The position numbers and the translations under genes are program-made. A stretch of 64,000 nt of DNA from Candidatus Woesearchaeota archaeon. GTDB taxonomy: Archaea; Nanobdellota; Nanobdellia; Woesearchaeales; ARS49. Shown here piece after piece: positions 11,289 to 63,991 of this stretch. How positions within the stretch are numbered: position 1 is the stretch's first letter; the number at the start of each line of letters is the position of its first letter. The stretch is from NCBI GenBank assembly GCA_016215315.1, contig JACRKG010000011.1, positions 537-64,536 of the forward strand, given 5' to 3'. The notes under the pieces were generated by a model. The model was not told where the DNA came from. It worked only from the letters and a program-made list of their open reading frames with translations, and did no database searches.

Positions 11289-11325
11289 GGTTTGTAGTTT
11301 ATAGTTTACGGTTCATAGTAAACTA
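11289..11325. repeat. intergenic repeat-family copy (GGTTTGTAGTTTATAGTTTACGGTTCATAGTAAACTA) with small hairpin
   Basis: Abuts the stop of 9667..11286. Contains TAGTTTAC/GTAAACTA inverted repeat. Confidence 0.6.
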
Positions 11326-11331
11326 AAAAAA

Positions 11332-12451: not shown

Positions 12452-12534
12452 ATTACGTAAAAATACGTAATGATATATAAATGTTTCGAGAAAATGGCTT
12501 CGCAATTTTCAAAAACAAAAAAAAGAAAAAAAAA

Positions 12535-13005: not shown

Positions 13006-13103
13006 CATTTTGAACACCTCCATGTGTTAATTATGTATATTTTACAGTTTTAAAAAATATTTTGGTTAAATTTTAGTAAGATTTATAAAAATAGACAGTT
13101 TTA

Positions 13104-14013: not shown

Positions 14014-14080
14014 TTTTCAAATCAAACAAAGAAAAAAATAAAAAAAACAATAGTCAAAAAATTTTTGCTTGCAAAAATTT

Positions 14081-14257
14081 TTATTTGAGCTTTTTAGCTT
14101 GTTCTGCGCCTAAAACTCTCCAGCATTCATGTGGACCACTTTGGGATTTTGCTACTGCAAAAAACCTTGTGCCTTTTTGCCTTACACTATACGTGTCTGT
14201 TTCAAACTTCTTCTTCGATTTAACGTCATAAAAACTTAGTTTTGGTTTAGCTGCCAT
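14081..14257 (-). CDS. small basic protein, possible nucleic-acid binding (58 aa)
   Basis: Lys-rich. No family assigned. Start at the internal Met (MAAKPK). Confidence 0.4.
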   Translation of the reverse strand: MAAKPKLSFYDVKSKKKFETDTYSVRQKGTRFFAVAKSQSGPHECWRVLGAEQAKKLK

Positions 14258-14292
14258 ATTATTCCCACCTCGCATTGTTTTTAACTGCTTTT

Positions 14293-15003
14293 TTAGTATA
14301 TTTTGCGCCTGAGTTTATTAAGTTTTCCAAAATCGAGCACTTTTTCATGGTCGATAACGTAAATTTCGAAGTCTAAAGGGTTTTTAAATAGGGGACTCAA
14401 GAACTGCTCTTTTATCACATCACTACCTTCAATCAAAGGGTTAAATGAAGGTTGAACAATCAAAGTTCTGCCTTTGTAGTCTCCTTTAAGAAAGCATTTG
14501 TACTTTTCCATCCTTCCTGCTTCCTTAAAGCCAATAGCAGGGTGCTCATGACCTATTATAACCGTTTTAACCTCTTTGTCTAATTCAGGCTCATAATCCC
14601 CATGAACAAGAAGAATGTCCTTTATTTTGTATTCTTTTACCAATTTTACATTCTTCTTATCAGTTATAGGGTAAAGAATAACATCATGATTTCCTTTAAC
14701 AACGATTACTTCGTAATCGTTCAAAAGATCGAATAATTTTGAAATATCTTTCCATTCCTGTGACAATATTTTGCCAAATTCATGTTTTACATCACCATTC
14801 AGAATTATTCGTTTAACTTTTACTTTTTTCAGAATTTGTTCTATCTTTTTTGCAATATCTTTTAGTTGAAATCTTGGAACTAAAACTCCCGTTTTTTCTA
14901 AGAATCCTTCATAACCTAAATGCAAGTCAGAGATTACTAAAGTTTCATGTTCTTTCAAGTATAACGATTCTTCAACAATGAATATCTCTTTAACTAATTC
15001 CAT
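14293..15003 (-). CDS. calcineurin-like metallophosphoesterase (SbcD/Mre11-related archaeal phosphoesterase)
   Basis: LVISDLHLG, ILNGDVKHEF, VKGNHD, IIGHEHP metallophosphoesterase motifs. Confidence 0.75.
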   Translation of the reverse strand: MELVKEIFIVEESLYLKEHETLVISDLHLGYEGFLEKTGVLVPRFQLKDIAKKIEQILKKVKVKRIILNGDVKHEFGKILSQEWKDISKLFDLLNDYEVIVVKGNHDVILYPITDKKNVKLVKEYKIKDILLVHGDYEPELDKEVKTVIIGHEHPAIGFKEAGRMEKYKCFLKGDYKGRTLIVQPSFNPLIEGSDVIKEQFLSPLFKNPLDFEIYVIDHEKVLDFGKLNKLRRKIY

Positions 15004-15166
15004 TTTATTGTTAATTTGTTGTTTTAATTTAAAATTTGTTCAAAACAAAACAGCAGTTTTGTCAAAATACTAACAAATATGCCAAATACCTCTTTTTTTG
15101 TACATTTCTGCCATTTGATATATAAATAAGTATTCAAAAAATAGTAGTGGGTCTAAGGAGCGTAAA

Positions 15167-15601
15167 ATGAAATTCATGTACGATTGGAAAGACACGAAAA
15201 AACTTTACTGGAAAGAAGATTTTCCATACTCGGGAAACTTAGCAACACTTGCTGAAACGTATTCAAAAAATTCTCTAAGACCAAAAATCAGTAAAAAGGC
15301 ATTACTCGAAAAAATGCTTGAACAAGACAAAGAATAATTCTTTTTTCTTAGTTCATCAATAATAGTTTATTTAAAGGTATTTTCTTTACAAGAGCTTTAT
15401 GCCTCATACAGAAAAGCTTTAGCAATTTATGCAGACACAAATTTTGATCGTGAAATAAGTGAAGAAGAAAAAAATGCATTTAACAAAAAAATGTATGCAG
15501 AAAACAACCTAACAATAATAGAAAAAAATAGTCCAAAACAACACTGGACTTGAAGTAACAATAGAAGACTTGTTAAAAATATTAGAAAAATACCAGAATT
15601 A
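15167..15601 (+). pseudogene. decayed tandem paralogue of the downstream gene 15607..16143 (in-frame TAA at 15335 plus a frameshift near 15525)
   Basis: 56-aa ORF, then a 71-codon open frame in the same phase after one stop. Contains [21 protein letters not shown], matching ADTNFDHNISEKEKNDFNQKM of the intact copy. C-terminal segment readable only after a frame change. Confidence 0.45.
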
Positions 15602-41918: not shown

Positions 41919-41981
41919 CCTCTCAGATAGCAAAGGTTATAAGATTTGTTGCATTTCATTATTTTATTGGAGGTTTTTGTT

Positions 41982-42584
41982 ATGAAAAACAAACAAACCA
42001 GTTTAGGAAATCCATTTACGGATTTAGAAAATCTAGTTGATTATTTGACTATTACCACTTGGAATATGGGCGCAGGCATGCCTGATTTGCAAATTGAAGC
42101 AGCTCCGCTCAAAACATATCTTCTAGGTTTTTATGTAGGAGATAAAAATTTAGCAGCACAAGCTGCAGAAGAACTTTTGAAAAAAGACCCGTTCAAAGCA
42201 TATCAAGCAGGAAAGTGTTCTCAAAATCAAAACTTAGCAGAAAGAGCAGTTGTTGTATTAATAGAAAAAGATGCTGAAAAAGCATACAAAATTGCAAAAC
42301 ACCAAGCACAGGATAAACAATTTTATGAAAAAGCAGTTCAAGCACTTGTTCAGGAAAATCCATTGAAGGCTTGCGGAGTTGGTTTAAGAGAAGAAGATGA
42401 TTATTTGTTAAGAAATGCAGGCAGAGCTCTTCTTAAAGTTAATCCTAGAAAAGCACATTCCGTTGGGAGATATTATGAAGATAAAAAACTCATGACTGAT
42501 GCAGAACAATTAATCAAACAAAAAAGAAAACTTTCAAGAAATCCTGTGAGCCATTCAGATATGTTCGAACTCCTGGGAATATAA
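41982..42584 (+). CDS. hypothetical alpha-helical repeat protein
   Basis: Repeated ...P.KAYQ/KAYK/KACG/KAHS... helical-hairpin units. Confidence 0.4.
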   Translation: MKNKQTSLGNPFTDLENLVDYLTITTWNMGAGMPDLQIEAAPLKTYLLGFYVGDKNLAAQAAEELLKKDPFKAYQAGKCSQNQNLAERAVVVLIEKDAEKAYKIAKHQAQDKQFYEKAVQALVQENPLKACGVGLREEDDYLLRNAGRALLKVNPRKAHSVGRYYEDKKLMTDAEQLIKQKRKLSRNPVSHSDMFELLGI

Positions 42585-42706: not shown

Positions 42707-44059
42707 TTATCGTACTTGCCAGTATCCGCCTTTATCAGGACCTATCCTTTTGATTATTTTTTTATCTTTGAGTATTGCTAATTGTTTTTCTACAGCTCTT
42801 TGAGAAATTCCAATTATTCTGGCCATTTGTCTTGCATTAATGTGTTTGTTTTCTTTTATTAGAGCAATAATTTTCTCCGAACTTCTCTCCGAACCTTCTC
42901 CGAACTTTTCTTCAGCTCTTTCAGAAAAGTACTCTCTTTTGAATTTTATTTTAAAATTTCCTTGGTTTTCTTCAAAAGTTGGAAGGGATAATTTGTTTTC
43001 TTTGAGTAAATTTATAATGTTTATTGTTCCTTTGCCCCAAGTATCAATGTATCCAGTTAGAAAAAATATTTTCGCGATTAGTGGATTGCGTAATTCTGAA
43101 TCATGTTCTTTGTAGAGGTCTTTAATTTTTATTTCTGCAGGAAGTTTTCCCGGGTTTGAGATTGTTATTGATTCGTCATGTATTTTTAGGCATACAAAAC
43201 TATTTTTTCTGTAGTCTCTGTGTATTAATGCGTTAAGTACTGCTTCTCTTAATGCTTCAATTGGTATTTCCCAGCTTTCTTTTCTTCTGAATTCTTCAAT
43301 TCTAGCTCGCACGTGTAGATGATCTTTAAAGAAGGAAAGAGCCCCTTCGAGTAATTGAAATAAATTCCCGTTAAAATCTCTAATGTCCGCAAATTCTTCT
43401 GTTGTTCCTTTGAAACGCCCGCATTTCAAAGTAATGTTTGGAAAGAATCGGTCTGAATTTTTTCCAAAAACAACAACCGCGGCATTTGTCAAACCTTCAC
43501 TAAAAAATAAACCTAATTTTCTTAGAATTGTCTTTTTACTTGTATCTGTTATAATCATTCTTTTTGATTCTTTGGCTAATTTAACAAAAGAATTTACTGT
43601 TTCGTTATCAATGTCTTTTAATGAAGCTTCTTCGCAAATTTCATCATCCCATCTTAGCTTATCTTCATTCTTGTCAACAAACAAATTTTCTAATTCTTTA
43701 GCACTCAACTGTCTGTCCTCGTCGCCAACTCTTGTGTACGCGCGTCCATAAGAAAAATAAGGTTTTTCTGAGCCTTCAAAATCCACAATAACATAATTCT
43801 TACCATTCAAGTCAATTCTGTTGATTTTTGGATAAATCTTTGGTTCTACGTGGTCGCTAATGGCTTTAGAGATTTCTCTTAAAGTATTTTCTGTGACGTT
43901 TTGTCCAACAACCTCACCATCATTTTTTACACCAAAATATAATTGCCCTTTGCCGTGTTTATTTAAAATAGCAACTATTGAGATAATTGCTTCTTTAAGC
44001 TCGGAAGTAGATTTTTTTAGTTCTACTGTTTCGTTTTCCTTTAATTTGTCTTTCGTCAT
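42707..44059 (-). CDS. AlbA_2 (Schlafen-like) domain ATP-binding protein with C-terminal winged-HTH
   Basis: N-terminus VELKKSTSELKEAIISIVAILNKHGKGQLYFGVKNDGEVVG (AlbA_2), HATPase-like middle, C-terminal HTH (INARQMARIIGISQRAVEKQLAILK). Confidence 0.65.
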   Translation of the reverse strand: MTKDKLKENETVELKKSTSELKEAIISIVAILNKHGKGQLYFGVKNDGEVVGQNVTENTLREISKAISDHVEPKIYPKINRIDLNGKNYVIVDFEGSEKPYFSYGRAYTRVGDEDRQLSAKELENLFVDKNEDKLRWDDEICEEASLKDIDNETVNSFVKLAKESKRMIITDTSKKTILRKLGLFFSEGLTNAAVVVFGKNSDRFFPNITLKCGRFKGTTEEFADIRDFNGNLFQLLEGALSFFKDHLHVRARIEEFRRKESWEIPIEALREAVLNALIHRDYRKNSFVCLKIHDESITISNPGKLPAEIKIKDLYKEHDSELRNPLIAKIFFLTGYIDTWGKGTINIINLLKENKLSLPTFEENQGNFKIKFKREYFSERAEEKFGEGSERSSEKIIALIKENKHINARQMARIIGISQRAVEKQLAILKDKKIIKRIGPDKGGYWQVR

Positions 44060-44581: not shown

Positions 44582-44726
44582 TTATTTTCCTCCTATTTTT
44601 ATTCATATTAAATACTCCTAGTATTTAAATGTTTCGAAATATTTACTACCATTTAGTGGCAAAAGTAGAAAGATTTAAAAGATCGGCAGAAATACCAGGT
44701 TAAAGAAGATTTTAGGGGGTATCAAA

Positions 44727-45728
44727 ATGGCAAACTTACACGAACTTTTCAGAAAATATGTTCAAGAAAGACAACAAGTTAGTTCTTTAGGACAACAATT
44801 AACACAACAAAGAGTAGAACTTACTGATTTAGAAAAAGCTTTAGATGGTGGCCAAGTTAAAGATGCTTTAACAAAAGAAATACAAACAAGAGAAGGACAA
44901 GTAGCCGAAGCAAAAAAAGCTTTAGAAGCAGGACAATTAGAACAAGGGTACAATGCTTTATTTCCTCAAGAAGCAAAAGTTTGTGTAGCACCAGTAAAAA
45001 AAGATATTCTTGCAGGATTGGATATTGAATTAAGATCAGATAAATTTACCTCATTTTCAGAAAATTTAGAAAGATTAAGACTTGCAGGATATGACCGACA
45101 TATAAGACCTGCCGAACTTATAGAAGTTCTATCAAGATACTTTGAAGGAGATAGAAATTATGAACAAACAGCCGAACTCTTCAATAATTCCAAGATGGTT
45201 TATGGAAACATCGCTTGGGTTGGTTTGGCTGCAAGATTAAAAAAAGGCAGCCAAGAAATCGAGTTCGCTTTAGATCCTGAATTCAACACGCCTTACAAAG
45301 CATACTTACTTGAAATAGATCCATTAAAAGCAAGTAAAAAAATAACACTAAATTCTTTATTATTCAACGGAATAAAAATCTACCAACAATACGATTTTGG
45401 AACCGTTATAGAAACAAAAGTAAACGAATTACCTGAAGAATTAGTTGAACTTCTTTGTGGCAGAAGTTCTGAAGATTTACCTGAAAAATTAAACGACTTG
45501 ATGTTATCATTGCGTCTAAATGAGCGGGAATGGTCCGTTCTAGCATTCGGAAGAGCATCTTGTGGAAACTTTTATTTCACAAATGCACCAACACAATTTG
45601 TACCTGCCCAATCTATAGGCGTAAAAAATCACACATCAGTACAGGAAGAAGATAAAGTTCCTACAAAATTAGAATATAACGGAGGTAAAAAAAATGAAAG
45701 AAGCATTAAACAAGTATACTCAAGCTAA
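44727..45728 (+). CDS. hypothetical protein: N-terminal coiled coil, paralogous to next gene, no MIDAS motif
   Basis: N-terminus KYVQERQQVSSLGQQLTQQRVELTDLEKAL parallels KYTQAKVEVDSRRQEVAGLEATLAGQ of the next gene. ALFPQEAKV vs LLFPDQVV. Confidence 0.5.
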   Translation: MANLHELFRKYVQERQQVSSLGQQLTQQRVELTDLEKALDGGQVKDALTKEIQTREGQVAEAKKALEAGQLEQGYNALFPQEAKVCVAPVKKDILAGLDIELRSDKFTSFSENLERLRLAGYDRHIRPAELIEVLSRYFEGDRNYEQTAELFNNSKMVYGNIAWVGLAARLKKGSQEIEFALDPEFNTPYKAYLLEIDPLKASKKITLNSLLFNGIKIYQQYDFGTVIETKVNELPEELVELLCGRSSEDLPEKLNDLMLSLRLNEREWSVLAFGRASCGNFYFTNAPTQFVPAQSIGVKNHTSVQEEDKVPTKLEYNGGKKNERSIKQVYSS

Positions 45729-46488
45729 AGTTGAAGTTGATTCAAGAAGACAAGAAGTTGCAGGTTTAGAAGCAACATTAGCAGGACAAAATCAATCTTT
45801 TGCAGCAACAGAACAAGAATTAAAAGCTGCAATCCAACAAGAAATAGACGCAAGATTTGCATCATTAACAGAAGCAGATAAAGCACTATTACAAAACGAC
45901 CCAGTCAAAGCATACCAATTATTATTTCCGGACCAAGTAGTTAGTCCAGGAAAATACAGAGGATTTGCAGTATTATTAGATAGTTCTGGATCAATGGAAG
46001 ACTTCGGCGCATTTAAAGAAGCATCTCAAGGAGCTCAAGAAGCATTTAATTTTTGTACTGGTGACGGAGCAGTAATAAATTTCAGTCTTGAAACTTTATT
46101 TTCCGGTTGGACTTATTTACTAGATGCTTATGGAAAAAACGGTTATAGAACAAGAAATGTTTGCGCTATGAGCTTTCTTAGTGATTACTTGAGAACTTTT
46201 CAAAGAGGCGGAACTCAATTAAGCAACAAAGAATTAATGCAATTAATAAATCAAGCAAAAGAACCTTTTTACGCACTAATGGTGACCGATGGACAAATCG
46301 AGAATTTCAACAAAATACAAGACACTCTAAAAAGCTTAAAAGAAAAGGGCAATGAACTAGAAATAATTTACCTAGGTTCTGACGCTAAGTGTCTTAAAGA
46401 CTTGACAGCTTTAGCAAAAGTTCAATCAGTCAAACCAAACCAAGTAAAAGCAAAAATACTAGAGTGCGCTAGAGCTAAACTTGAATGA
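45694..46488 (+). CDS. von Willebrand factor A (vWA) domain protein with N-terminal coiled coil
   Basis: MIDAS residues: VLLDSSGSM (DxSxS), GGTQLS (Thr), VTDGQ (Asp). Overlaps previous gene by 35 nt. Confidence 0.6.
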   Translation: MKEALNKYTQAKVEVDSRRQEVAGLEATLAGQNQSFAATEQELKAAIQQEIDARFASLTEADKALLQNDPVKAYQLLFPDQVVSPGKYRGFAVLLDSSGSMEDFGAFKEASQGAQEAFNFCTGDGAVINFSLETLFSGWTYLLDAYGKNGYRTRNVCAMSFLSDYLRTFQRGGTQLSNKELMQLINQAKEPFYALMVTDGQIENFNKIQDTLKSLKEKGNELEIIYLGSDAKCLKDLTALAKVQSVKPNQVKAKILECARAKLE

Positions 46489-46939
46489 AATGAATCTTAA
46501 ACAAATCGTTCAAGATCTTTTTCAGAATTACAAAGCAAATAAGCAAACCATTCAAGAAAGAGAAGTTCTGGAAGAAGAACTTCTTTCATTCTCAGGAATT
46601 GAAAGAAATGATTCTTATTTTTTTGTTTTGATACCTGTTGACTCTCCCGACCTTCAACATTTTGGTTCTGCTTGCGGTGAATTTGGAAACAAAATGTTCT
46701 CTAGCAAATCATTAGCAACATTTCTTAAAAACAAAGATGTAAAAAACATTTTAGGGATTGTTTACCAACCACACTCAGATTTTACTTATTCAAATAATAC
46801 TGTAGCTTTAAGCGCCATTGCATTACCAATTGTTGGAAAAGATGGGCACGTATTTCAATTTTTAGCAGAAAAAAACAAAGGCAGCTTCAGATATGAAAGA
46901 TCAAGAGTTAAAGTATGGAGCGTTTACGAATCGGAATAA
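46481..46939 (+). CDS. hypothetical protein (152 aa), third gene of the cassette
   Basis: Overlaps the vWA gene stop by 8 nt. Confidence 0.45.
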   Translation: MNEMNLKQIVQDLFQNYKANKQTIQEREVLEEELLSFSGIERNDSYFFVLIPVDSPDLQHFGSACGEFGNKMFSSKSLATFLKNKDVKNILGIVYQPHSDFTYSNNTVALSAIALPIVGKDGHVFQFLAEKNKGSFRYERSRVKVWSVYESE

Positions 46940-46945
46940 AAAGAT

Positions 46946-47479
46946 TCAAAACTTATCACTGATATCTTCAGTCCTAAAACCTTTAACAAGAGCCACTCCA
47001 TCTATTGTGGAATGATTGTAAGTCTCTACATCTACCATTCTAAGTATTTGATGAACTTTAACTATTGGAGGCCATAGTTGAATCCAGGTACCTTTGGGAG
47101 TTATTTCGTCATTTACATTCTCTATCTGATTGCGACATTCTGGATAACACATAATAAGCAACAAACTTTCACCACCATAATCTTTTGCAAGAATATGAGA
47201 ATACCATGAGCTATCATTCAGTCCAGTTTCTAAAGTTGGCACACCATCAATAATTGCACATTCATCTTTCTCATAAACAATTCTCCTACCATCTCTAACC
47301 AAATATTGATAAATTGCATCATCAAGTTTGGCAGTGCTCATACACCCCCTATTCGCCATAGTAGTTTTTCTTTTATCAAATACTTTTCTTACTGAATCAT
47401 AGCCTTGCAAAAAGGTCGTAGAATTAATTCCAGATACTATATAACCTTTATAACCTAAATTTTTTGACATTTTTATCAC
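46946..47479 (-). CDS. hypothetical protein (177 aa) with conserved-looking Cys/His residues
   Basis: Clear ORF. No family assigned. Confidence 0.45.
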   Translation of the reverse strand: MIKMSKNLGYKGYIVSGINSTTFLQGYDSVRKVFDKRKTTMANRGCMSTAKLDDAIYQYLVRDGRRIVYEKDECAIIDGVPTLETGLNDSSWYSHILAKDYGGESLLLIMCYPECRNQIENVNDEITPKGTWIQLWPPIVKVHQILRMVDVETYNHSTIDGVALVKGFRTEDISDKF

Positions 47480-49176: not shown

Positions 49177-49779
49177 ATGAAAGTACTAGCGTTTAGCGAT
49201 GTTCACGGCGATCATTCTTTAATTAGAAAGCACGTTGAAACTGCAAAAAAAGAAAACGTTGACTTGGTTATTATTGCAGGAGACTTTTCAGTGTTAGACC
49301 AAGCACCGCAAAACTTAATAGGTCCGTTTAAAGCTATTGGAAAAAAAGTTTTAGTTGTTCACGGAAATCATGAAAGCGAAACAACGCTTGAATTTTTGTC
49401 TGAAAGTTATAAAGTTGGAAATCTTAACAAGTATGCTGTAGAGTATGATGGCGTAGGATTTTTTGGTGCTGGTGGAGCAAGTATTGGTCCTTTTATGACT
49501 CCGGAAAAAGTAATTTTTGAAAGAATAAAAAACGGACACAAGTATGTTAGCAAAGCAAAGAAAAAAATCATGGTAACTCATTCTCACCCAAGTGGTTCTT
49601 TGATGGAACAGTTTTCTAATATTGTTCCAGGTAGCGAAAGTGTTAGAAGAGCAATAGAACAATTTCATCCAGATATTGTGGTTTGCGGTCACGTTCATGA
49701 AGCTCAAGGAATCGAAGAAAAAATAGGAAATACTAGAGTAATTAATGTTTCTAAAGTTGGAAAAATATTTGACATATGA
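49177..49779 (+). CDS. calcineurin-like metallophosphoesterase
   Basis: LAFSDVHGD, IIAGDFS, VHGNHE, GHVHEAQG motifs. Confidence 0.7.
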   Translation: MKVLAFSDVHGDHSLIRKHVETAKKENVDLVIIAGDFSVLDQAPQNLIGPFKAIGKKVLVVHGNHESETTLEFLSESYKVGNLNKYAVEYDGVGFFGAGGASIGPFMTPEKVIFERIKNGHKYVSKAKKKIMVTHSHPSGSLMEQFSNIVPGSESVRRAIEQFHPDIVVCGHVHEAQGIEEKIGNTRVINVSKVGKIFDI

Positions 49780-50115: not shown

Positions 50116-50173
50116 TTAGGTTTTTAAATCTTGATTGGTTTCTCTGAGTTATTCGAGTGGAGGAAAAAATAAA

Positions 50174-51127
50174 ATGGAAAGAACAATTGTTGTTGATGAT
50201 TTAACTTATTTTAGAGCTTTAGATTATAGTGTTAGAGAAGCCATGAAAGCTTTTGAGACTTCTTTGGTCGAAGCTGCTGAACAAACAGTTAGTGATATTG
50301 AAGCGAAAGTTGGAAGTTATCCTGTTGAAGGGTACTATCATGAAACAGAAAACTTAACGAGATACTTTAATGCAATAAGAACTTTACAAGATCCAGTAAA
50401 TTTTTCAGAAAAAGTAACTGATAACATAAAATTGTTTAACAAAATTTACACACATCCAGTTTTTGGGTTAAAACAAGCAATGCCTACAGCATTAAATAAA
50501 GATGCTTACTGGAAAGATCATGAACCCGTTGTTGTTTCTCCAGTTATTGATCCAGTGACTATTGCAACACAAAAAACTTATCCTAGTTGGACTTTTGATA
50601 CAATCATGACTGCTATTGAAGGACAAGAATTAGGAACTTGCCTTGTTGGTTTGGCAGCTCTCGTTGACCAGAATAATAAAGTTGACGGAAAATACAATCC
50701 TGTAGCTACAACTTGGGCTAGAGAAACTACTGTTTTGTCAGCTGCAAAATTTGTAGCAAGAAGCTGCATGCCTTCAAAACCAACAATTGATTGGCAAGTG
50801 AGCAAAGAAGTAGAAGAATACGGCACTAAAGTACTTGCAGGATATGCTGACTTAATAGAGAATAATTCTCTCACAAGAAATGTAAGAAGACCTTATGAGG
50901 TTAATGAGAAAACAATTAGCGCATTATTGAGCAATTCAGAAAACCCACGAAGATGTGTTCATTTATGCACTGACGACAAAAAAAATCACTATCATTGGGC
51001 TGTTGCAGTTGATAACAACGGTAAGTACAGAGTAGTTGACTTTTATGCAAAAAAAATAGTGACAACAAAAGAATACCAAAAAGATCCAAGCGCAGTATTA
51101 CAGCTTGAATTTTTTGATAGAAACTAA
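50174..51127 (+). CDS. hypothetical protein (317 aa), possible Cys/His hydrolase
   Basis: Start at MERTIVV. C-terminus CVHLCTDDKKNHYHWAVAVD. Confidence 0.45.
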   Translation: MERTIVVDDLTYFRALDYSVREAMKAFETSLVEAAEQTVSDIEAKVGSYPVEGYYHETENLTRYFNAIRTLQDPVNFSEKVTDNIKLFNKIYTHPVFGLKQAMPTALNKDAYWKDHEPVVVSPVIDPVTIATQKTYPSWTFDTIMTAIEGQELGTCLVGLAALVDQNNKVDGKYNPVATTWARETTVLSAAKFVARSCMPSKPTIDWQVSKEVEEYGTKVLAGYADLIENNSLTRNVRRPYEVNEKTISALLSNSENPRRCVHLCTDDKKNHYHWAVAVDNNGKYRVVDFYAKKIVTTKEYQKDPSAVLQLEFFDRN

Positions 51128-54477: not shown

Positions 54478-55290
54478 TCATCCTCGTATCCCGTAAATCA
54501 TTCCTAGCATTGTGTTTATTTTTCTTGTTATTAGGTCGTTGAAGTATTCTGTTTTGGCGTATCTTTGTGCTCCGATTAGTTTTTGTACTTCATCAAATTT
54601 TTGTGGAGTAAAACTGTAGTATAAGTCATAGCATTTTTCTAAGTATTCTTGAATCTTTTTGTTTGGTGTTTTATTGAATAAAAGCATGTAATTAATGTCA
54701 TCTCCAATGTTTTCTAGTAAACTGCAAAGTTTTGAATAAAGAGTTACTAATTCATAATCTTTGTGTCCTTGTTTTATTAGTAATCTTAAGCAATAAGCAT
54801 GCAATTTGTTAAGGTTTTGATCGTATTTTTTTATTAATTCTTTATCTTGTTCTCTAGACATTTCTATTATTAACAAAAAACATCTTCTTAGTAATGTTTC
54901 AAAGTTTTCTGAAGCTTCCTTGGCTATGTCTTTTATTATCAAGTATTCTTTTTTGTGTTCGATTATTTCATAACCTATGCAACGATTACTAATAACATCA
55001 TAAACTTCACTTGTTTGTTTTGTATCTGCATTAATTATTTTTATTTCATCTACTCCTTTTTTGTACAGTATTTGTAAAACGCGAGTTAGTGAATGCCTTA
55101 ATATTTTAGCATCCACTGTCGCTTTTGTTTTCTCAATTCCCTCTGGTTTTATTACTAACGCCGACCCCGTAATAGACAAATCAACTTGCCTAGATTTTTC
55201 TAAACCGTACTTTTTTACCCATTCTATTGGCAAAGTAATTGTGTAAGAACTTCGTTCTTTAGGTCCTTGTGTGGTGAGTTTCCTTTGCAT
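54478..55290 (-). CDS. PhoU-family phosphate uptake regulator with N-terminal AbrB/SpoVT domain
   Basis: ITLPIEWVKKYGLEKSRQVDLSITGSALVIKP (swapped hairpin) then two PhoU-like three-helix repeats. Confidence 0.7.
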   Translation of the reverse strand: MQRKLTTQGPKERSSYTITLPIEWVKKYGLEKSRQVDLSITGSALVIKPEGIEKTKATVDAKILRHSLTRVLQILYKKGVDEIKIINADTKQTSEVYDVISNRCIGYEIIEHKKEYLIIKDIAKEASENFETLLRRCFLLIIEMSREQDKELIKKYDQNLNKLHAYCLRLLIKQGHKDYELVTLYSKLCSLLENIGDDINYMLLFNKTPNKKIQEYLEKCYDLYYSFTPQKFDEVQKLIGAQRYAKTEYFNDLITRKINTMLGMIYGIRG

Positions 55291-56519: not shown

Positions 56520-57422
56520 TCAGCCCATGTGCGCATGCTTATGACTTAATACTTCGTAGAATGAGTCAAATATTGGTTTATCCGAGGAGAAGCTGTAGAA
56601 TTCTGCTCCTGCTTCGTCGCATGCTTTTAGTATTTCATTTTTGTGTTTTGCTAGGTTTAGTAAGTATTGCTTTCTTAAGTATGGGTTAACATAAGTTCTT
56701 AGTTGTTCTTTGCTTTCTAAATCTCTTAATTTAAAGTCTCCATCTAAATTTAAGTCTGCTTCTACTGGATCTAAGACTTGTATTAGTTTTACTTCGTTAT
56801 GTTTTAGTTTTAGTAATGTTGTTCTTATTTGGTCTATATCATATAAGAAGTCAGAAATCAGTATTATTAGTGATTTGGTATTGATTACTTTTTTGTAAGA
56901 GGATAATGATTCTTGTAAGTTTGATAGTCCTTGAGGTTTTTCATTGTTTAAGTGGTCTAATAGTACCATTAATTGTTGTCTTCCTCTTTTTGGTCTGAAT
57001 ATTGTTAGTTTGTCAGCAAATGTTGATAGAACAAATTTTTCGTTGTTTTTCATTGCCATAAATGCAAAGCCTATTCCTAGCATTGATGCATATTCAGATT
57101 TTTTTAGCTTGGCACTTTTGAAGTCCATGCTTGCGCTGAAATCTACAATTACGTGAATGGTTAAGTTTCTTTCTTCTTCGAATCTTTTAATGAATAATTT
57201 GTCTGTTCTTCCAAATACTTTCCAGTCTATTGCTCTGAAGTTTTCTCCAGGACTATAGATGGTGTAATCTTTGAATACTAATCCTTCTCCAGTATGCTTA
57301 CTTACTCTTTCTCCAGTGTAGTTTGAAGTAATTCGTTTGTTAATTATTAAACTCATCCTATCAAGGTGATCCAAGAACTCTATGTCAATCATAGTAAAAC
57401 CTCTTGGTTTTACCGACATCAA
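56520..57422 (-). CDS. DUF58 (vWA-like) protein, MoxR-associated
   Basis: HVIVDFSASMDF (D-x-S-x-S-like) and position downstream of MoxR. Confidence 0.65.
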   Translation of the reverse strand: MMSVKPRGFTMIDIEFLDHLDRMSLIINKRITSNYTGERVSKHTGEGLVFKDYTIYSPGENFRAIDWKVFGRTDKLFIKRFEEERNLTIHVIVDFSASMDFKSAKLKKSEYASMLGIGFAFMAMKNNEKFVLSTFADKLTIFRPKRGRQQLMVLLDHLNNEKPQGLSNLQESLSSYKKVINTKSLIILISDFLYDIDQIRTTLLKLKHNEVKLIQVLDPVEADLNLDGDFKLRDLESKEQLRTYVNPYLRKQYLLNLAKHKNEILKACDEAGAEFYSFSSDKPIFDSFYEVLSHKHAHMG

Positions 57423-57502
57423 CGGTGTCTAATGGAGTCATAAATATTTGTAGGTGTCGGGGAAGGTCGCGGGAGTCAAAAACATTTTCTAGACTTTTCA
57501 TT

Positions 57503-58438
57503 TTAAAGGATTTTTTTAATTACATCATCTACTTTTAGATTGCTTTTTTCTGCTTCAAACGTAGGTATTATTCTGTGTCTTAGTATTGGTAGTGCCATGT
57601 TTTTTACGTCATCTTTGCTTACGTATTTTCTTCCGTTTAGTAATGCTCTTGCTTTTGCTGAAATTACTAGTCCTAGTGATGCTCTTGGTGATGCTCCGTA
57701 TTCTATTAGTTGTGGGCTATTTCTTGTTTTTGTTACTATGTCGACTGCGTATTTTTTTATGTCGTTTGCTATTGGTATGCTTTTTGATAGTTGTTGTAGT
57801 TGCAATAATTCTGCTTTTTTTAGTACAACTCTTACTTTTGCTTCTTCTGCTTGTTCTGCATACCTGTTTACTATTTCTAGTTCTTCTTGAAATGTGGGGT
57901 ATGAAACATTGATTTTTAGCAAGAATCTGTCGCTTTGCGCTTCTGGTAATGGATAGGTTCCTTCTTGTTCGATTGGGTTTTGTGTTGCTAGTACAAAGAA
58001 TGGTTTGTCTAATTGGTATGTTGTGTTTCCTACTGTTACTTGTCTTTCTTGCATCGCTTCTAAGAGTGCTGATTGTGTTTTTGGTGTTGCTCTGTTGATT
58101 TCGTCTGCTAAAACCAGATTTGCGAATACTGGTCCTGGTTGGAATTTGAAGTTTCTTTTTCCTCCAGTTGTTTCTTCTATTAAGTATGTTCCTGTGATGT
58201 CTGATGGCATTAAGTCTGGAGTGTTTTGTATTCTTGAGAATTTTAGTTCCATCATTTCTGCCATGGTTTTTACTACTAGTGTTTTTGCTAGTCCGGGATA
58301 TCCTTCTAGTAGTGCGTGTGCGTTGCATAGTAATGCTATCATTACTTCTCCAACCATTTCTTCTTGCCCTACTATTACTCTTCCCACTTCCGAGAATGAT
58401 TTATCAATTAATTTTTTTGCGTCAGCAACTTTCATCAT
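57503..58438 (-). CDS. MoxR-family AAA+ ATPase
   Basis: LLEGYPGLAKT Walker A, LADEINRA Walker B, MoxR-specific NPIEQEGTYPLPEAQSDRF. Confidence 0.85.
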   Translation of the reverse strand: MMKVADAKKLIDKSFSEVGRVIVGQEEMVGEVMIALLCNAHALLEGYPGLAKTLVVKTMAEMMELKFSRIQNTPDLMPSDITGTYLIEETTGGKRNFKFQPGPVFANLVLADEINRATPKTQSALLEAMQERQVTVGNTTYQLDKPFFVLATQNPIEQEGTYPLPEAQSDRFLLKINVSYPTFQEELEIVNRYAEQAEEAKVRVVLKKAELLQLQQLSKSIPIANDIKKYAVDIVTKTRNSPQLIEYGASPRASLGLVISAKARALLNGRKYVSKDDVKNMALPILRHRIIPTFEAEKSNLKVDDVIKKIL

Positions 58439-58560
58439 ATTTTTTCCTCCGGAAAAAATCTATTATTCCTCACTTCGTTCGGAACATAAATATTTTCCTA
58501 TACTACTTCTTTTTTTGTTTTTTGTTGAGAATTTTAAAAACGAAGCTTCGTTTTTAAATT

Positions 58561-59343
58561 CTACTTGCTTATTCTGCTAAAATAATCTTTAACTATTAAA
58601 TGATAATCTTCAGGTATGTTCTCTTGATAGCTTACGTCTGATGTTGCTTTTATTTCTTTTGGTTTATAATTGCTTTCAAAAGTGTTTTTTTCGGGATCTT
58701 TAATTTTGCTTATATCAATATCGGTTTGTACTGGGCTTAATACTAGTTGTAGTTCTTGGTAGCCTAGTTCTGCTATTGATTTGTTTCCGTAAATATCCTC
58801 TAATTTTTGTGATTCATTTAAGTAAAGTGTTTCGTCTTGAACATTATATGCAGGTAATTGGGCTATTTTTTCTTTTAAGTTGGACAATAAATCTGCAAAG
58901 TTTAGTAGTGAGATGTTTGCTGCTGCAATAAATATAATCAAAAAGGACAATATTACTAATAGAGTTATTCTTCCAGTTATTTGGCCAAATTTTAGGAATA
59001 CTGCGTTGTTTATCATTCCCATCTTTTTGAGTACTTCTTCATTAAGTTCATTGATCACAGAATCGTCTTTGTGTAAATTGTCTGCAACTGTTCTTAGTTG
59101 TTCTCTTAAGAAGGGAACTCTTCTTTCTATGTATTCAAAATGAGCTGATTTGATTACATACCAAGTGTGAAGCAGTAAGTATAAAACAAAGGGAATAAAT
59201 GTGTAATAGAAAGGTATTTGTATTAATAAAAACACTAAGAAGAATATAGAAAAAACAACCAAACTATCTATTAAACTATTTGTGGCTGCCATTATTACTA
59301 CATTAAATTTCAATTCCCTCAGTGCTTTCTCAATTGTTTTCAT
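58561..59343 (-). CDS. hypothetical membrane protein (4 TM)
   Basis: Part of the Bat-like operon. Confidence 0.5.
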   Translation of the reverse strand: MKTIEKALRELKFNVVIMAATNSLIDSLVVFSIFFLVFLLIQIPFYYTFIPFVLYLLLHTWYVIKSAHFEYIERRVPFLREQLRTVADNLHKDDSVINELNEEVLKKMGMINNAVFLKFGQITGRITLLVILSFLIIFIAAANISLLNFADLLSNLKEKIAQLPAYNVQDETLYLNESQKLEDIYGNKSIAELGYQELQLVLSPVQTDIDISKIKDPEKNTFESNYKPKEIKATSDVSYQENIPEDYHLIVKDYFSRISK

Positions 59344-59344
59344 C

Positions 59345-59875
59345 TTATGAATTTTGGCAAGCAGCTAGACTGCTTTTGCAAGATGCTAATGAGTTGCTCA
59401 AACTATTAACGTTATCTTTGTAAGAATTACTTAATGCTATTAGTTCATTCACTTTTTCTTGTAATTGGTTGTTTGAGGCTTCAAGGTTGGCGTAATCGAA
59501 TTCTAATTTTTGATTTCTTGTTTTTAAATTATTATTCAGAATTTCTAAGTCGTCAGATTTTAACTTAAACTGGTCTTTTTCTTTGGCCACTTTGTCTTTT
59601 TCTGTTTTTACTTCTTGATATTTTTGGCTGAATTCTTCTTCACGTTCTGATTTAGTTGATAATTCTGTTTCTATTTTTTTAAGTAGTGCTTGTTTTTGTT
59701 CTAACTCTTGTTTTATTCCTGTTAGATCAGTATTTAGTCCGGAATATTCTGAATTTATTTTTTTAAATGTATAATTAAAATAAACTGTTGCTGATACTAG
59801 CCCTAATGAAGCTAGAAGTATCAGGAACAAAAGGAACAAGTTTGCATTTTTTGTTATGAAAGCCATACTATTCAC
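59345..59875 (-). CDS. membrane-anchored coiled-coil protein
   Basis: N-terminal TM, then heptad repeats rich in K/E/Q/L. Confidence 0.5.
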   Translation of the reverse strand: MNSMAFITKNANLFLLFLILLASLGLVSATVYFNYTFKKINSEYSGLNTDLTGIKQELEQKQALLKKIETELSTKSEREEEFSQKYQEVKTEKDKVAKEKDQFKLKSDDLEILNNNLKTRNQKLEFDYANLEASNNQLQEKVNELIALSNSYKDNVNSLSNSLASCKSSLAACQNS

Positions 59876-62297
59876 TTCGGAAATAACGCCTTATAAATAT
59901 TTCTATTAAAAACAAAATCATTGCAGCCAATAAGAATGGCCACCTGAGTGTTTCTTTTGAAGTTACCACTCTTTTTGATCTCGTTTTTGCGTATTCATAA
60001 ATGCCATTTATATCACTTGGTTCAAACATTAGTCCACCTGTTGAGCTGACAAAATTTCTTAGTTCTTGATTAAGTCCTAAGTTTTGGTATTCTAAAGGAT
60101 AATTGCTTGCAAAAGTCGAGGATAATACTTCTTGGAAGCCTATTTTTTCTGGAACTACTGTTGTTTGATATGTGTTTTCGTCTGTTTTGTAAAAAGTATG
60201 TTCTGGACTTTTTGGTTGTTGTTTTGATTTTATTGTTAAAATTGCAGGTTCTCCCACTCTTGTATCTTTTACATTGATTCCTTCCTCTAGTTTTCTGTCG
60301 GGTTCTCCTATTGCCCAGTTTAGTGATCTTACTAGTATTTTTGAATTTTTACCGCTCATTAATTCTGCAGCCCACACACTTCCATCATCTATTGCATATG
60401 CTCCAACTCTTCCTAGACCTACTCTCCACACTGCAAATATTGGGTCTCCTTTGTTTGTTGTTAATAGTAATCTTGCAGATGTTTTTGGTACTACGTCATT
60501 AAATCCATAAATTGAAGCACTTATGTTTGCTAAGTCGTTTGTTATGAAATGGTTGCTGTTTAGTACTGTGAGTGTTGGTGTTTTTGTTTTATCTTCGTCT
60601 AGATCTCCAAATAATATTTTTATTTTTGATACTTCATCTGCTTTGAAGAATACTCCATTTGTTAGTTCTGCTATTCTCATCATTGCTAAATCATCAGTTT
60701 TTTCTCCAACTCCAACTGTGTATATTCTTGCTCCTATGTTTGCTGCTTTTTTTGCCGCTTCATAAGCCACATTTATTGTTTCTGCAGTGTCTTTTCCATC
60801 GCTAATTAGGATTATGTTTTTGCTTCCAGGAACTGTTTCTAATAATTGTTCTGCTTTTAATATTCCTTGACTTATTGCTGTACTGCTGAAGTGTTTTAGT
60901 TTGGATATTCTTTCCTCAACATCTCCTTTTGAGAATAATATTTCCATTGGAGATACTAGGTATGCTTGGAAGTTGAATGCTACTACTGCCAACCGTACAT
61001 TAGGTCGGATGTTTTTTAGTACATCTAGAGCTAATGCTTTTTCTACGTCTACAGATAATACTCCTTCTGCAAGTTGTGCTCCTTGACTTCCCGAAATATC
61101 AACAACTATCACTATGTTCATGTCGCTTTCTTTTCTTCCTGCTTTTCCTACTTGTACTGGCATGATTAGTGTTTCAAAAGGAGAAGCTCTGTATAAACCG
61201 TCGTTGTAACTGTTGTATCCTCCAAATACTAGCATTCCGTTACCATCTCTTAAATATTCTAATAATGTATCCACATGAGGATTTAGATCGTTTGAGTGTA
61301 CATCATTTACCATTACTGCGTATGCGTCTTTTAATAACTCTTTAAGTTGCGACTCTTCAGGCATATAAGGCAGTTCTTTTACTTTTACTACTTGTTCAAG
61401 AAGTGTTTTGATTGGTGATTTTGGATTTTTTGAGATTAATAATACTTGGGGTTGTGGAACTACTTGTACTGATTTGTAGAATGCATTATTTTCTTGAATA
61501 TCATCATTAACTGAGATTTCTGCGCTTACTTTATGGAAGCCTGTTGCGAATTTTTGTGATACAGTTACTATTTTTTCAGTAGTTACTTGTTCGTAAACGA
61601 TTTTTCCATCAATTGTTACTTTTAATGGTACACTACTTATTTTTCCTACTTTGTTTATCATTATGTTAAATGTATTTTCTACGTCTTCTGTTGATTTGTC
61701 CGGTCCTTGTATTGAAACGCTTGCTTCATCTTTTACTTGAGCTAATTGTACTCCATTAATTGTACTGTTAAGGTTGCTTGCATACAATACTACATCCCCT
61801 AAGGAAGTTCCTTTTGTTACTTGTCCATCGCTCACTAGTAATATGTTATCATTTTTGCTTAATTGACTTAGTACTTCATCACCTAACTCGCTTTCTTCTC
61901 TTCTTCCTATTGTCATTACTTGGACATCTATTTTATCTCTTAATGCATCAATGCTAGATTGAGGAAATGAGTCTAGAACAGACATACTGCTTGAATTGTC
62001 TATTAATATTTTGAGGAAAAGATCTCCTTGAATTTCTTTTTCAACTTCAACATAATATCCCGTTAATGCAAGAAGTAATAAGAAAAAGATTATTGTTCTG
62101 CTTATCAAAACCATCTTTTGAACTAATAAACGTTTTTGTTTCACATGTTCTTCTTCTTGTAATTTTAAGTATTCTCCTTTAATAAAATACCAAAGTATGA
62201 AGAATATAGGAATTATTAATAACAATAACCACGCTTTTTCCATGCTTAAAGATATGTTAAAAAAATACAGTAGTTTTTCTATTGTTTCAATCATCAT
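59868..62297 (-). CDS. vWA domain membrane protein (BatB-like, two vWA modules)
   Basis: N-terminal TM pair. ILIDNSSSMS and IVIVVDISGSQG MIDAS motifs. C-terminal TM. Confidence 0.7.
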   Translation of the reverse strand: MMIETIEKLLYFFNISLSMEKAWLLLLIIPIFFILWYFIKGEYLKLQEEEHVKQKRLLVQKMVLISRTIIFFLLLLALTGYYVEVEKEIQGDLFLKILIDNSSSMSVLDSFPQSSIDALRDKIDVQVMTIGRREESELGDEVLSQLSKNDNILLVSDGQVTKGTSLGDVVLYASNLNSTINGVQLAQVKDEASVSIQGPDKSTEDVENTFNIMINKVGKISSVPLKVTIDGKIVYEQVTTEKIVTVSQKFATGFHKVSAEISVNDDIQENNAFYKSVQVVPQPQVLLISKNPKSPIKTLLEQVVKVKELPYMPEESQLKELLKDAYAVMVNDVHSNDLNPHVDTLLEYLRDGNGMLVFGGYNSYNDGLYRASPFETLIMPVQVGKAGRKESDMNIVIVVDISGSQGAQLAEGVLSVDVEKALALDVLKNIRPNVRLAVVAFNFQAYLVSPMEILFSKGDVEERISKLKHFSSTAISQGILKAEQLLETVPGSKNIILISDGKDTAETINVAYEAAKKAANIGARIYTVGVGEKTDDLAMMRIAELTNGVFFKADEVSKIKILFGDLDEDKTKTPTLTVLNSNHFITNDLANISASIYGFNDVVPKTSARLLLTTNKGDPIFAVWRVGLGRVGAYAIDDGSVWAAELMSGKNSKILVRSLNWAIGEPDRKLEEGINVKDTRVGEPAILTIKSKQQPKSPEHTFYKTDENTYQTTVVPEKIGFQEVLSSTFASNYPLEYQNLGLNQELRNFVSSTGGLMFEPSDINGIYEYAKTRSKRVVTSKETLRWPFLLAAMILFLIEIFIRRYFRSE

Positions 62298-63991
62298 TAG
62301 AGCATTCCTCTAAATTTTAGGTAGACTAATTCTCCTGAAATTGCAAGTATTGCCAAGAGTATTATTATTGGACTTATATCAAATGTTCTTTTTTCTTTTA
62401 TTGCCTGTACTTGATATGCTTCGGCACTTTTTTCTGTTACACTTTTTACTGCAGTTATGCTGCTTTCTCGTTCATCTAATAAGTTTGATGCAATTTTTTG
62501 TCCTGGAAGTTTGTAAATTCCTGCATCTTCAAGTAATACGGTTTGAGTTACAACTCTTCTTCCTGAGGGCAGTTCTACTTCTTGAGGTTGTGATGTGCTT
62601 AAAAAATCTTTAGTTAAATGATTTAGTTGATTAAGATCTTGTTTTTCTAGCAAAAATTTTATTAGTTCTGTCCAAAATATTGGGTAACTTGGAGAAAATT
62701 TGAAGTCACTTGCTCCCTCCATTATTCCGTAATAAATTATTTTTCCTCTACCTTTTTGCTGCATTCCTATTATTGTTTGGTTTTCTGCAGTTACAAAAGG
62801 AGTTAATGGATTATCACTGCCTAAAGTCCAGTGATATTCTACTTTTCCAAAATCTGCATTTCTCGTGAACTTATTTACTTGTTGAACTATTAAGTCTGCA
62901 CCGCTTCTTATTTTTTCAAGTACGGGCAAATTAAATAGCGGGTTTAAATTTATTTTATCCATATTTTCTTGAGTATTAATTACAAGGCTTGCTCCTGCTT
63001 CAACTCGTGCATTTAAGTCTTCAAAAGTTCCAGTTAAGATTTCGTTTGGATCAATATTTTGTAAAAAATAAATATCATAGTCTCCTCCCGGAATGATTGG
63101 GGGGTTAGTAACTTCTACATCTAAAAGTTTTGTTGCTTTTAGTGCATTTGTCAAGAATATTGAGTCGTTATTTGTTATTATTAATGCTTTAGATTTTAAC
63201 TGATCTGGAGCACTTATGTAAGCATAATTATCTAAGTCCAAGTCATCTTTAGGACTTATTTCTAGCTTTGTTATTCCTCCAACTGTTTGAAATGAGAATG
63301 GTTCTACTTGTCCTGGTTCTAAAGTAATTTCTTTTGTTAAGTCATTCGCTGTTAAGGTTACTTTTTTTGGTTCATTATTGAAATTTTTAATGTATGCTAC
63401 ACTTGCTTGATCATCAACAACCAATTTTACGAAACCAACATTATCTTTTTCTTGATCATTTGCAATATTAACAAAATCAACTATCATTCCTTTAGATTCT
63501 AGTATTGATTTTGCTGTTGATGGGTCTTGCCCTTCAGTATTTATGAAATCACTTATTACAATTATTCTTCCTTCTCTGTTTTTGTCTGCTTGTTCAAGAA
63601 TGCTTCCTGCAGCAAGTATTGCATCGCCTAATCTTGTTGAAGATTCTGAAGGTCTTAAGCTATTTATGAAATCTACCGTTTCGCTTTTTCCTTTATCTTT
63701 GAGAGCTATTTTAGTATAATATTTTGCCAAAACAACTGTGTTTCTCGAACCAGCCACTTCTTTTGCTTTTTGCATCATTTTTTGAAATCTTGTTGTTCCA
63801 TCTTCTTTTGTTTGCATACTTGCACTCACATCAAGAACTAAAACTGTGTGAGCCGCACTTATGTCATGGAAGTATTCCATTATTGGTGCTAAAACTGCAA
63901 GAGTTATCAATAGAAGAACTAATAATTGAATAAGAAATAACCAGTCTTTTGTTAATTGTTTCAAGAAAGAAGTAATTTTGTTTGTCCCCAT
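62297..63991 (-). CDS. vWA domain membrane protein (BatA-like)
   Basis: N-terminal TM. TVLVLDVSASMQ MIDAS motif. C-terminal TM. Confidence 0.7.
   Translation of the reverse strand: MGTNKITSFLKQLTKDWLFLIQLLVLLLITLAVLAPIMEYFHDISAAHTVLVLDVSASMQTKEDGTTRFQKMMQKAKEVAGSRNTVVLAKYYTKIALKDKGKSETVDFINSLRPSESSTRLGDAILAAGSILEQADKNREGRIIVISDFINTEGQDPSTAKSILESKGMIVDFVNIANDQEKDNVGFVKLVVDDQASVAYIKNFNNEPKKVTLTANDLTKEITLEPGQVEPFSFQTVGGITKLEISPKDDLDLDNYAYISAPDQLKSKALIITNNDSIFLTNALKATKLLDVEVTNPPIIPGGDYDIYFLQNIDPNEILTGTFEDLNARVEAGASLVINTQENMDKINLNPLFNLPVLEKIRSGADLIVQQVNKFTRNADFGKVEYHWTLGSDNPLTPFVTAENQTIIGMQQKGRGKIIYYGIMEGASDFKFSPSYPIFWTELIKFLLEKQDLNQLNHLTKDFLSTSQPQEVELPSGRRVVTQTVLLEDAGIYKLPGQKIASNLLDERESSITAVKSVTEKSAEAYQVQAIKEKRTFDISPIIILLAILAISGELVYLKFRGML

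Follow-up and report, generated by a model that had tools for sequence, protein, structure and literature searches.

A rare operon family of small-genome archaea in which a divergent vWA protein and its neighbours share an N-terminal coiled-coil domain

In the Bacteria, conflict systems centred on von Willebrand factor A (vWA) proteins have been described in which effector-associated domains (EADs) are duplicated on the core protein and on the products of adjacent genes (PMC7159879; Kaur, Burroughs, Iyer and Aravind 2020). In these systems, tetratricopeptide repeat (TPR), beta-propeller, and coiled-coil modules are the commonest partners of the vWA domain, MoxR ATPases usually work with vWA partners, and the beta-propeller subtype of the MoxR-vWA ternary systems has no conventional effector (PMC7159879). 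Among the Archaea, the closest experimentally studied vWA pair is ArnA-ArnB, a complex encoded by adjacent genes (PMC6509490, PMC12852372). Here we describe two overlapping genes, designated g1 and g2, in a 64,000-nucleotide (nt) stretch of DNA, hereafter the window, from a metagenome-assembled genome (MAG) of Candidatus Woesearchaeota, and we compare them with these systems.

Many genes in the tiny genomes of DPANN archaea are unannotated, and the ways in which these archaea handle viruses and hosts are poorly understood. The window is part of a contig with a GC content of 32% (JACRKG010000011.1 of assembly GCA_016215315.1; NCBI locus tags HZA97_), and archaeal ribosomal-protein genes lie directly upstream of the cassette. 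Both g1 and g2 begin with the same heptad-repeat domain of about 65-80 residues, which we name CC-N. The cassette is laid out as follows.

44674 to 44720, plus strand: two motifs that may serve the expression of g1, TTTAAA (44674-44679, TATA-like) and AGGGGGT (44714-44720, Shine-Dalgarno-like), their function judged from sequence
44727 to 45728, plus strand: g1, 333 amino acids (aa), with CC-N at residues 1-80 (nt 44727-44966) and, at residues ~85-320, an orphan C-terminal domain
45694 to 46488, plus strand: g2, 264 aa, with CC-N at residues 1-79 followed by a vWA domain at residues ~88-264, including the motif DSSGS at nt 45979-45993
46490 to 46939, plus strand: g3, 149 aa, function unassigned, with the start given by NCBI and by the orthologue of a close relative, coupled to g2 through UGAAAUG
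46946 to 47470, minus strand: g4, 174 aa, a convergent orphan 6 nt from the end of g3, kept only in the same close relative

An earlier note on this DNA had read g1 and g2 as overlapping open reading frames (ORFs), and both are present, on the plus strand; the reading frames overlap by 35 nt, and each is preceded by a Shine-Dalgarno-like motif (AGGGGGT for g1 and GGAGGT for g2). Our preferred reading, which we hold tentatively and which may well prove wrong, is that g1 and g2 form the two-gene core of an operon family that is rare and confined to archaea, and that they encode an accessory, non-enzymatic complex for binding, adaptor, or scaffold functions, whose interchangeable heads are joined by a coiled coil. 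What is new here is the CC-N docking domain, the orphan head of g1, a divergent vWA subfamily, and the rare modular archaeal operon family to which they belong.

According to its structural model, the region of g2 covering residues ~88-264 is a genuine vWA fold with a complete metal ion-dependent adhesion site (MIDAS) motif, and metal binding is predicted. The AlphaFold2 (AF2) model of g2, with a predicted local distance difference test score (pLDDT) of 75, consists of a helix followed by an alpha/beta fold with alternating strands and helices. When this model was compared with the PDB and BFVD using Foldseek, all matches with a probability of 1.0 were vWA domains, with target-normalised TM-scores of 0.5-0.64; they included TFIIH p44, TRAP, vWF A1, ANTXR, NorD, ArnB, and many viral vWA proteins. 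The MIDAS (DxSxS...T...D) is intact in g2, as had been noticed from the letters: the motif DSSGS at residues 96-100 is invariant in five homologues, and their alignment shows no substitution at D96, S98, S100, or D199, while four of the five keep T173. In the model, D96 ends the predicted strand 90-95 and D199 ends the strand 192-198; in the canonical MIDAS, the aspartates likewise end core strands 1 and 4 (PMC7159879).

At the level of sequence, g2 stands apart from the described vWA families. The fold and the MIDAS motif are both present, and the score stays under the Pfam gathering threshold for VWA: g2 has no VWA match in Pfam up to E = 1, and its homologue P0010 reaches 25.4 bits against VWA_2, for which the cut-off is 27. 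There is also no significant match to g2 in NCBIfam or among PDB sequences, and the NCBI product name of g2 is “VWA domain-containing protein”. Because g2 falls below the Pfam threshold and a profile of its family recovers canonical VWA proteins only weakly, we consider it a divergent vWA subfamily. An exhaustive HMMER search of 1.84 billion representatives with the g2 family found 276 proteins at E values up to 1e-3; most of the best 150 of these 276 align to the vWA domain alone, and a handful carry CC-N. Many of the vWA-only matches are 500-700 aa long, and those examined have an HExxH motif and no Pfam match.

It should be mentioned that such 500-700 aa proteins (P0021, P0026, P0030, and P0146) contain, as their C-terminal domains, the remote relatives that come nearest to the vWA domain of g2. 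An N-terminal HExxHW..CP.D motif, which is zincin-like, is found in P0021, P0026, and P0146, and P0021, P0026, and P0030 have no Pfam match. At the two loci examined that encode HExxH-vWA proteins (L025 and L026), no MoxR gene is adjacent. Judged from their motifs, these proteins look like an uncharacterised peptidase-vWA family.

The second line of evidence is the CC-N domain. In a direct BLASTP comparison, g1 and g2 are 29% identical over 119 residues (E 8e-6), and the alignment of the two family profiles with hhalign has a probability of 97.2% (E 3e-11) and covers residues 4-80 only. The two proteins had been called paralogous coiled-coil proteins; this holds for the first ~80 residues, and the paralogy is confined to CC-N, because no relationship exists between the two C-terminal domains. 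A hidden Markov model (HMM) of CC-N, searched against six-frame translations of the window and of the first related loci collected, recovers all family members at E values below 1e-27, and no other sequence in the same search scores better than E 0.15, despite the presence of other coiled-coil proteins. The conserved hydrophobic columns of CC-N are spaced 3-4-7-3-4-7, with a power at period 3.5 above that of 99.8% of shuffles, and a KY.Q start and an LFP end are found in both g1 and g2. The AF2 model of the g2 CC-N shows a long helix at residues 2-66 and a short helix at residues 70-77. Besides g1 and g2, 18 other sequences have CC-N, and in eight operons it is found on two to four adjacent gene products. 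No model in Pfam, NCBIfam, or PADLOC matches this domain. SNARE-like and prefoldin-like readings of CC-N were also considered and dropped; nothing supported them.

As a separate observation, a 212-aa ORF of the window (41946-42584, plus strand) contains a repeated helical motif (DPFKAYQ, DAEKAYK, ENPLKAC, VNPRKAH) similar to the sequence “NDPVKAYQLL” with which CC-N ends. This ORF is not matched by the CC-N HMM, and it has no counterpart at the syntenic locus of the close relative.

Behind its CC-N, g1 has a C-terminal domain with four known members only. Searching 5.8 billion clusters with the full-length alignment and, separately, with an alignment of the C-terminal domain returned the same g1 family only, and an HMM of the domain matches nothing beyond its own members. 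No match was found in Pfam, NCBIfam, PHROGs, PADLOC, or PDB profiles. We rejected the idea that g1 is a degenerate vWA paralogue, because its C-terminal domain is unrelated to that of g2, and the alignment between their profiles is limited to residues 4-80. The early description of the cassette as unannotatable was thus justified, since sequence searches of Pfam, NCBIfam, PADLOC, PHROGs, and PDB gave no significant match.

The family is rare. In the 5.8 billion clusters, g2 has about five close homologues, all of them from archaeal MAGs or metagenomes. Together with the window, three other loci have the g1-g2 pair, which makes four independent loci: L001 is syntenic with the window, and a single genome (GCA_053533315) carries the cassettes L002 and L004. 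Both genes are intact in all four, and their overlap or close abutment is kept in all four. The tight coupling of g1 and g2 proposed from the window alone is borne out. A degenerate DNA pattern for the motif AVINFSxxTxxSGW occurs at two loci in 185,579 species-representative genomes and at five loci in metagenomes, and among these loci CC-N is found in L024 only. Related operons, in which the partners of the vWA protein differ, have the following gene orders.

L006 and L024: CC-N with vWA, then CC-N with a PQQ propeller
L010: vWA, then CC-N with a TPR-like domain, then CC-N with a PQQ-like domain
L015: CC-N with a TPR-like domain, CC-N with vWA, a second CC-N with vWA (split), and CC-N with a PQQ-like domain
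L016: CC-N with a beta-rich domain, vWA, and CC-N with a PQQ propeller

In these related operons a vWA domain is always present on one protein, and the other heads are a PQQ beta-propeller, a TPR-like domain, or the g1 domain. The surroundings vary: a Schlafen/AlbA_2 gene in the window, an island with integrase, AbiEii, and Bro-N at L001, PIN, MazE, and AAA_14-DUF4143 genes at L004, and an integrase at L016.

Two further observations were made at the related loci. In a Methanosarcinales MAG (L014, 6234-7022), a 262-aa vWA protein of the g2 subfamily (AVINFS..T..SGW) is encoded among successive small ORFs of the same strand, a stretch with the look of viral or integrated-element DNA. At L006 (2699-6338) and L024 (262-2999), the CC-N vWA/PQQ operon is preceded by RPA and YdjM genes, and upstream of these lies a cluster encoding type IV pilin-like membrane proteins, each with a single hydrophobic segment at the N-terminus; with 59-72% identity between the two loci, the pilin-like proteins evolve fast.

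We also compared the length of CC-N between partners, measured as the distance between two conserved aromatic anchors. The lengths fall into three classes.

73/73: partners in L004, L006, and L015; the L010 pair has 73/71, and the PQQ subunit of L015 has 72
80/80: both CC-N partners of L016, one extra heptad each relative to 73
64/66: g1/g2 of the window, L001, and L002, with deletions of 9 and 7 residues

In other words, CC-N lengths match within operons and differ between operons. This pattern, which goes back to few independent events, may reflect the requirement of an in-register hetero-oligomeric coiled coil.

The rates of evolution separate g1 and g2 from their neighbours. Between the window and L001, the ratio of non-synonymous to synonymous substitution rates (dN/dS) and the identity are as follows.

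Flanking genes (S13, S4, aminotransferase, kinase): identity 88-95%, dN/dS 0.06-0.10
g3: identity 89%, dN/dS 0.067
g4: identity 86%, dN/dS 0.21
g1: identity ~62%, dN/dS 0.465
g2: identity ~62%, dN/dS 0.385

The dS values of g1 and g2 (0.5-0.6) are comparable to those of the flanks, and their dN/dS values are 4-8 times those of the flanks, with the divergence concentrated in the heads. Similarly, between L006 and L024 the CC-N operon has a dN/dS of 0.27-0.38 and the flanks one of 0.04-0.07. Splits or frameshifts interrupt family genes in L006, L024, and L015. Because of the raised dN/dS and the split genes, we regard genes of the g1/g2 type as accessory, and as weakly constrained or diversifying. 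Some stretches have a low dS: the first ~40 codons of g1 and of g2 (44727-44850 and 45694-45820) have a dS of ~0.11 against L001, compared with 0.4-0.9 elsewhere, and between L006 and L024 the whole CC-N operon has a dS of 0.13-0.28, compared with ~0.6 in the flanks. Nucleotide-level constraint, gene conversion, or recent exchange are possible explanations.

The cassette had originally been described as a three-gene unit, the third gene having 152 aa and overlapping the stop codon of g2. Such an overlap arises only if TTG at 46481 is taken as the start; the most likely start of g3 is the ATG at 46490, one base past the g2 stop (UGAAAUG), which gives 149 aa, agrees with the NCBI annotation, and has the same arrangement in the L001 orthologue. 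The unit itself is smaller than was thought, since g1 and g2 are kept in L001, L002, and L004, whereas g3 is kept only in L001, with a dN/dS of 0.067 that is housekeeping-like, against 0.39-0.47 for the pair. We considered both g3 and g4 as parts of the system and rejected them: among the related loci examined, their homologues are found in the window and L001 only, and neither has any library match. Unrelated genes occupy the position of g3 in the other cassettes. The gene g3 is translationally coupled to g2, yet probably outside the conserved unit, and the membership of g4 is doubtful.

On these observations, the working of the g1-g2 pair can be pictured as follows. The CC-N helices of neighbouring gene products would align in register and form a coiled coil, parallel and hetero-oligomeric, which would join a MIDAS-competent vWA head to a second binding head. 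The vWA head may use a divalent cation to bind an acidic residue in a peptide ligand, and the second head would be the orphan domain of g1 in the window and a PQQ beta-propeller or TPR-like repeat in the relatives. The whole complex would most plausibly act as a binding, adaptor, or scaffold module with heads that diversify fast, as one would expect in virus-host or symbiont-host interactions.

Several points weigh against this picture. Hetero-oligomerisation is suggested by the architecture and by a length covariation that comprises three length classes only. Within these classes, the 64/66 deletions (-9 and -7 residues) are unequal and located at different positions, and the 80/80 match could be the result of a recent duplication within the operon, because the two CC-N copies of L016 are 46% identical to each other. 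The head of g1 is neither modelled nor classifiable, its AF2 model being poor (pLDDT 40) and without a library match. The dN/dS is below 1 in every segment compared and so does not demonstrate positive selection, and relaxed constraint fits the rates as well as diversifying selection does. Library scans of the cassette proteins found no effector enzyme, NTPase, or known defence component, and mobile or defence-type neighbours occur at only four of the seven long loci. If the complex is not real, a gain in annotation is still left, namely the domain boundaries, the start of g3, and the removal of the kinase and phosphoesterase from the unit. The g1-g2 pair also offers a testable case of partners that would co-adapt the length of their coiled coils.

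A narrower form of the preferred reading, which we think unlikely though not far-fetched, is that the CC-N operons are a MoxR-independent archaeal counterpart of the vWA-centred conflict systems, in which a length-matched coiled coil docks fast-evolving sensor heads onto a MIDAS vWA protein and viral or host proteins are recognised in DPANN archaea. As a hypothesis, a role in defence is compatible with the fast evolution, with the swapping of heads, and with neighbourhoods that are partly island-like. In a search of PADLOC-DB 2.0, g1, g3, and g4 had no match, and the only match of g2 was PDC-S01, at an E value of 0.0085 and 12.9 bits.

Among the other explanations, the one that survives best, although it too is improbable, is that the pair serves an episymbiotic DPANN archaeon as part of a structure or scaffold, for example of a cytoskeletal, envelope, or host-attachment kind, with a coiled-coil stalk, adhesive heads, and no role in conflict. 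The long heptad-repeat helix of CC-N would suit a stalk, the heads are all protein-binding modules and none is an enzyme, and the operons of L006 and L024 lie ~1.7 kb downstream of the pilin-like membrane-protein cluster; moreover, the window cassette has housekeeping genes around it, and its site is orthologous in two genomes. However, no subunit has a signal peptide or a transmembrane segment, and the family is very sparse for such a component, as the homologue and pattern counts given above indicate (about five and two, respectively). Disrupted genes in the relatives together with a high dN/dS would also be unusual for a core structure.

The surroundings of the cassette raise the question of whether g1 and g2 form a regulatory pair comparable to ArnA-ArnB, that is, a switchable complex that steers gene expression or surface structures, possibly with nearby kinases and phosphatases acting on its phosphorylation. 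The earlier note had linked the cassette to a nearby P-loop kinase and two metallophosphoesterases. An AAA_33 P-loop kinase and a metallophosphoesterase do lie within 3 kb of the cassette, and the kinase, a DUF1858/Fe-S protein, and the metallophosphoesterase at 49177-49779 are a conserved flank of the window. The link itself did not hold for the one phosphoesterase that was checked: at L001 an island of ~5.7 kb, with integrase, AbiEii, and Bro-N, separates the cassette from the kinase and the other flank genes, and no kinase, DUF1858/Fe-S protein, or phosphoesterase was found near the cassettes of L002, L004, L006, L015, and L016, so that neither kinase nor phosphoesterase is co-conserved with the pair. 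The kinase, the phosphoesterases, g3, and g4 are therefore placed outside the g1-g2 unit. A regulatory role would gain from the presence of ArnB (8s05_B) among the Foldseek matches of g2 and from the fact that ArnA and ArnB are themselves an archaeal vWA complex from adjacent genes (PMC6509490, PMC12852372). Nevertheless, ArnB is found at rank 35, no better than generic vWA domains, g1 has neither an FHA nor a zinc-ribbon domain, and the neighbouring kinase is a nucleotide-kinase-like P-loop protein and not a protein kinase, which leaves this explanation with little probability.

With regard to the same surroundings, the cassette is flanked by two indel-prone sites. On one side, a 450-aa gene (42707-44059, minus strand) with Schlafen/AlbA_2, HATPase_c_4, and helix-turn-helix (HTH) domains is absent from the syntenic site of L001; on the other, the L001 island (9962-15333, ~5.7 kb), between g4 and the kinase, also has a DUF6398-TPR gene. 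Further along the window, a 330-aa orphan without a library match (50135-51127, plus strand) and a 270-aa protein with an N-terminal MazE/AbrB-like domain (54478-55290, minus strand) are encoded.

About 10 kb downstream of the cassette, the window contains a self-contained, Bat-like MoxR-DUF58-vWA operon (56520-63991, minus strand) with the following genes.

56520 to 57422, minus strand: DUF58 gene
57503 to 58438, minus strand: MoxR (AAA_3 at 9e-64, also bpMoxR), the only MoxR in the window
58561 to 59343, minus strand: DUF7502 gene
Between the DUF7502 and vWA genes, minus strand: 176-aa ORF
59868 to 62297, minus strand: vWA protein, 809 aa
Starting 9 nt from the end of the window, minus strand: 564-aa protein with VWA_2, DUF7407, and DUF7408

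Because MoxR ATPases are typically paired with vWA partners (PMC7159879), g2 might be a client or adaptor of this MoxR, and the cassette a dispersed member of a MoxR-vWA chaperone system; the large HExxH proteins whose C-terminal domains are most closely, though remotely, related to the vWA domain of g2 could be read in the same direction. We give this explanation little credence. The MoxR of the window has its own vWA and DUF58 partners in its operon, and neither AAA_3 nor AAA_5 genes were found within 3 kb of the cassette, nor within 8-10 kb of the related cassettes in L001, L002, L004, L006, L015, and L016. The two HExxH-vWA loci that were examined have no MoxR either, and nothing like the Bat-like operon was seen near the other CC-N cassettes.

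Finally, the genes could be what is left of a decaying mobile element or virus and have no function in the cell today. This would account for the raised dN/dS, the split genes of the relatives, the integrases and Abi or toxin-antitoxin genes near some loci, and the related vWA gene in the virus-like run of small ORFs at L014, but it is hardly credible for g1 and g2, which are intact in four loci with their overlap or abutment kept in all and their ribosome-binding sites kept in the window, and which have a dN/dS well below 1, invariant MIDAS and CC-N motifs, a composition native to the genome, and no match in PHROGs, phage records, or viral contigs. As for composition, the cassette had been called GC-richer than its flanks, and the difference turns out to be negligible: at 33.9% GC, compared with 32.4% in the window as a whole, it lies at the 85th percentile of sliding windows and less than one standard deviation away, and its GC content at third codon positions is similar to that of the neighbouring genes. 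A recent horizontal transfer of the cassette, considered on this ground, was rejected. A viral origin was likewise rejected: nothing matched in PHROGs or, by tblastn, in 50,697 phage records, and IMG/VR yielded no relative.

How, then, does the g1-g2 pair compare with the known vWA systems? The FtsZl1-vWA operons (PMC2875224) were rejected as a parallel, because the cassette has no FtsZ-like 1 gene. The Bat-like operon has in common with g2 that MIDAS-bearing vWA proteins are encoded in operons of the same genome; its vWA proteins, however, match Pfam VWA/DUF58 and stand beside MoxR, whereas g2 is below the Pfam threshold and has no adjacent ATPase. ArnA-ArnB, which functions in the regulation of the archaellum of Sulfolobus (PDB 8s05), is like g1/g2 an adjacent archaeal pair in which one protein has a vWA domain, and it is a known heteromer. 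The structural match between ArnB and the g2 vWA domain is, as mentioned, of the generic kind; furthermore, neither g1 nor g3 has the FHA or zinc-ribbon match in Pfam that would be expected of an ArnA, no protein kinase or PP2A is linked to the cassette, and ArnA and ArnB have no common N-terminal domain, unlike g1 and g2 with their CC-N.

The bacterial systems offer the broader comparison. Membership in the MoxR-vWA ternary systems fails, because the defining components are not adjacent: the cassette has no neighbouring MoxR, VMAP, iSTAND, or FtsH gene, and neither g1 nor g3 matches VMAP-C, iSTAND, FtsH, or a vWA-fused propeller in Pfam or PADLOC. Other differences concern the proteins themselves and their hosts. 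The propellers of the CC-N operons are separate polypeptides and are not fused to the vWA domain, as they are in the beta-propeller type; CC-N is a long heptad coiled coil at the N-termini of the subunits and, according to the libraries, is not a described EAD; and CC-N is found in small-genome archaea (Woesearchaeota and related MAGs), whereas the EAD and MoxR-vWA systems are found in multicellular bacteria. The similarities lie in the logic. In both, a vWA protein with an intact MIDAS is central, its partners are of the TPR, beta-propeller, and coiled-coil types, the heads are variable, and several versions per genome are possible; the beta-propeller subtype, like the CC-N operons, has no conventional effector. 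In both, the same small non-enzymatic domain is found on the core protein and on the products of adjacent genes, which suggests docking between like domains. By analogy, the complex of g1 and g2 would thematically resemble the bacterial vWA conflict systems, minus MoxR. If this is true, the combination of a vWA core, adaptors with the same domain, and repeat-domain heads extends from multicellular bacteria to minimal archaea, where it would work without the MoxR chaperone.

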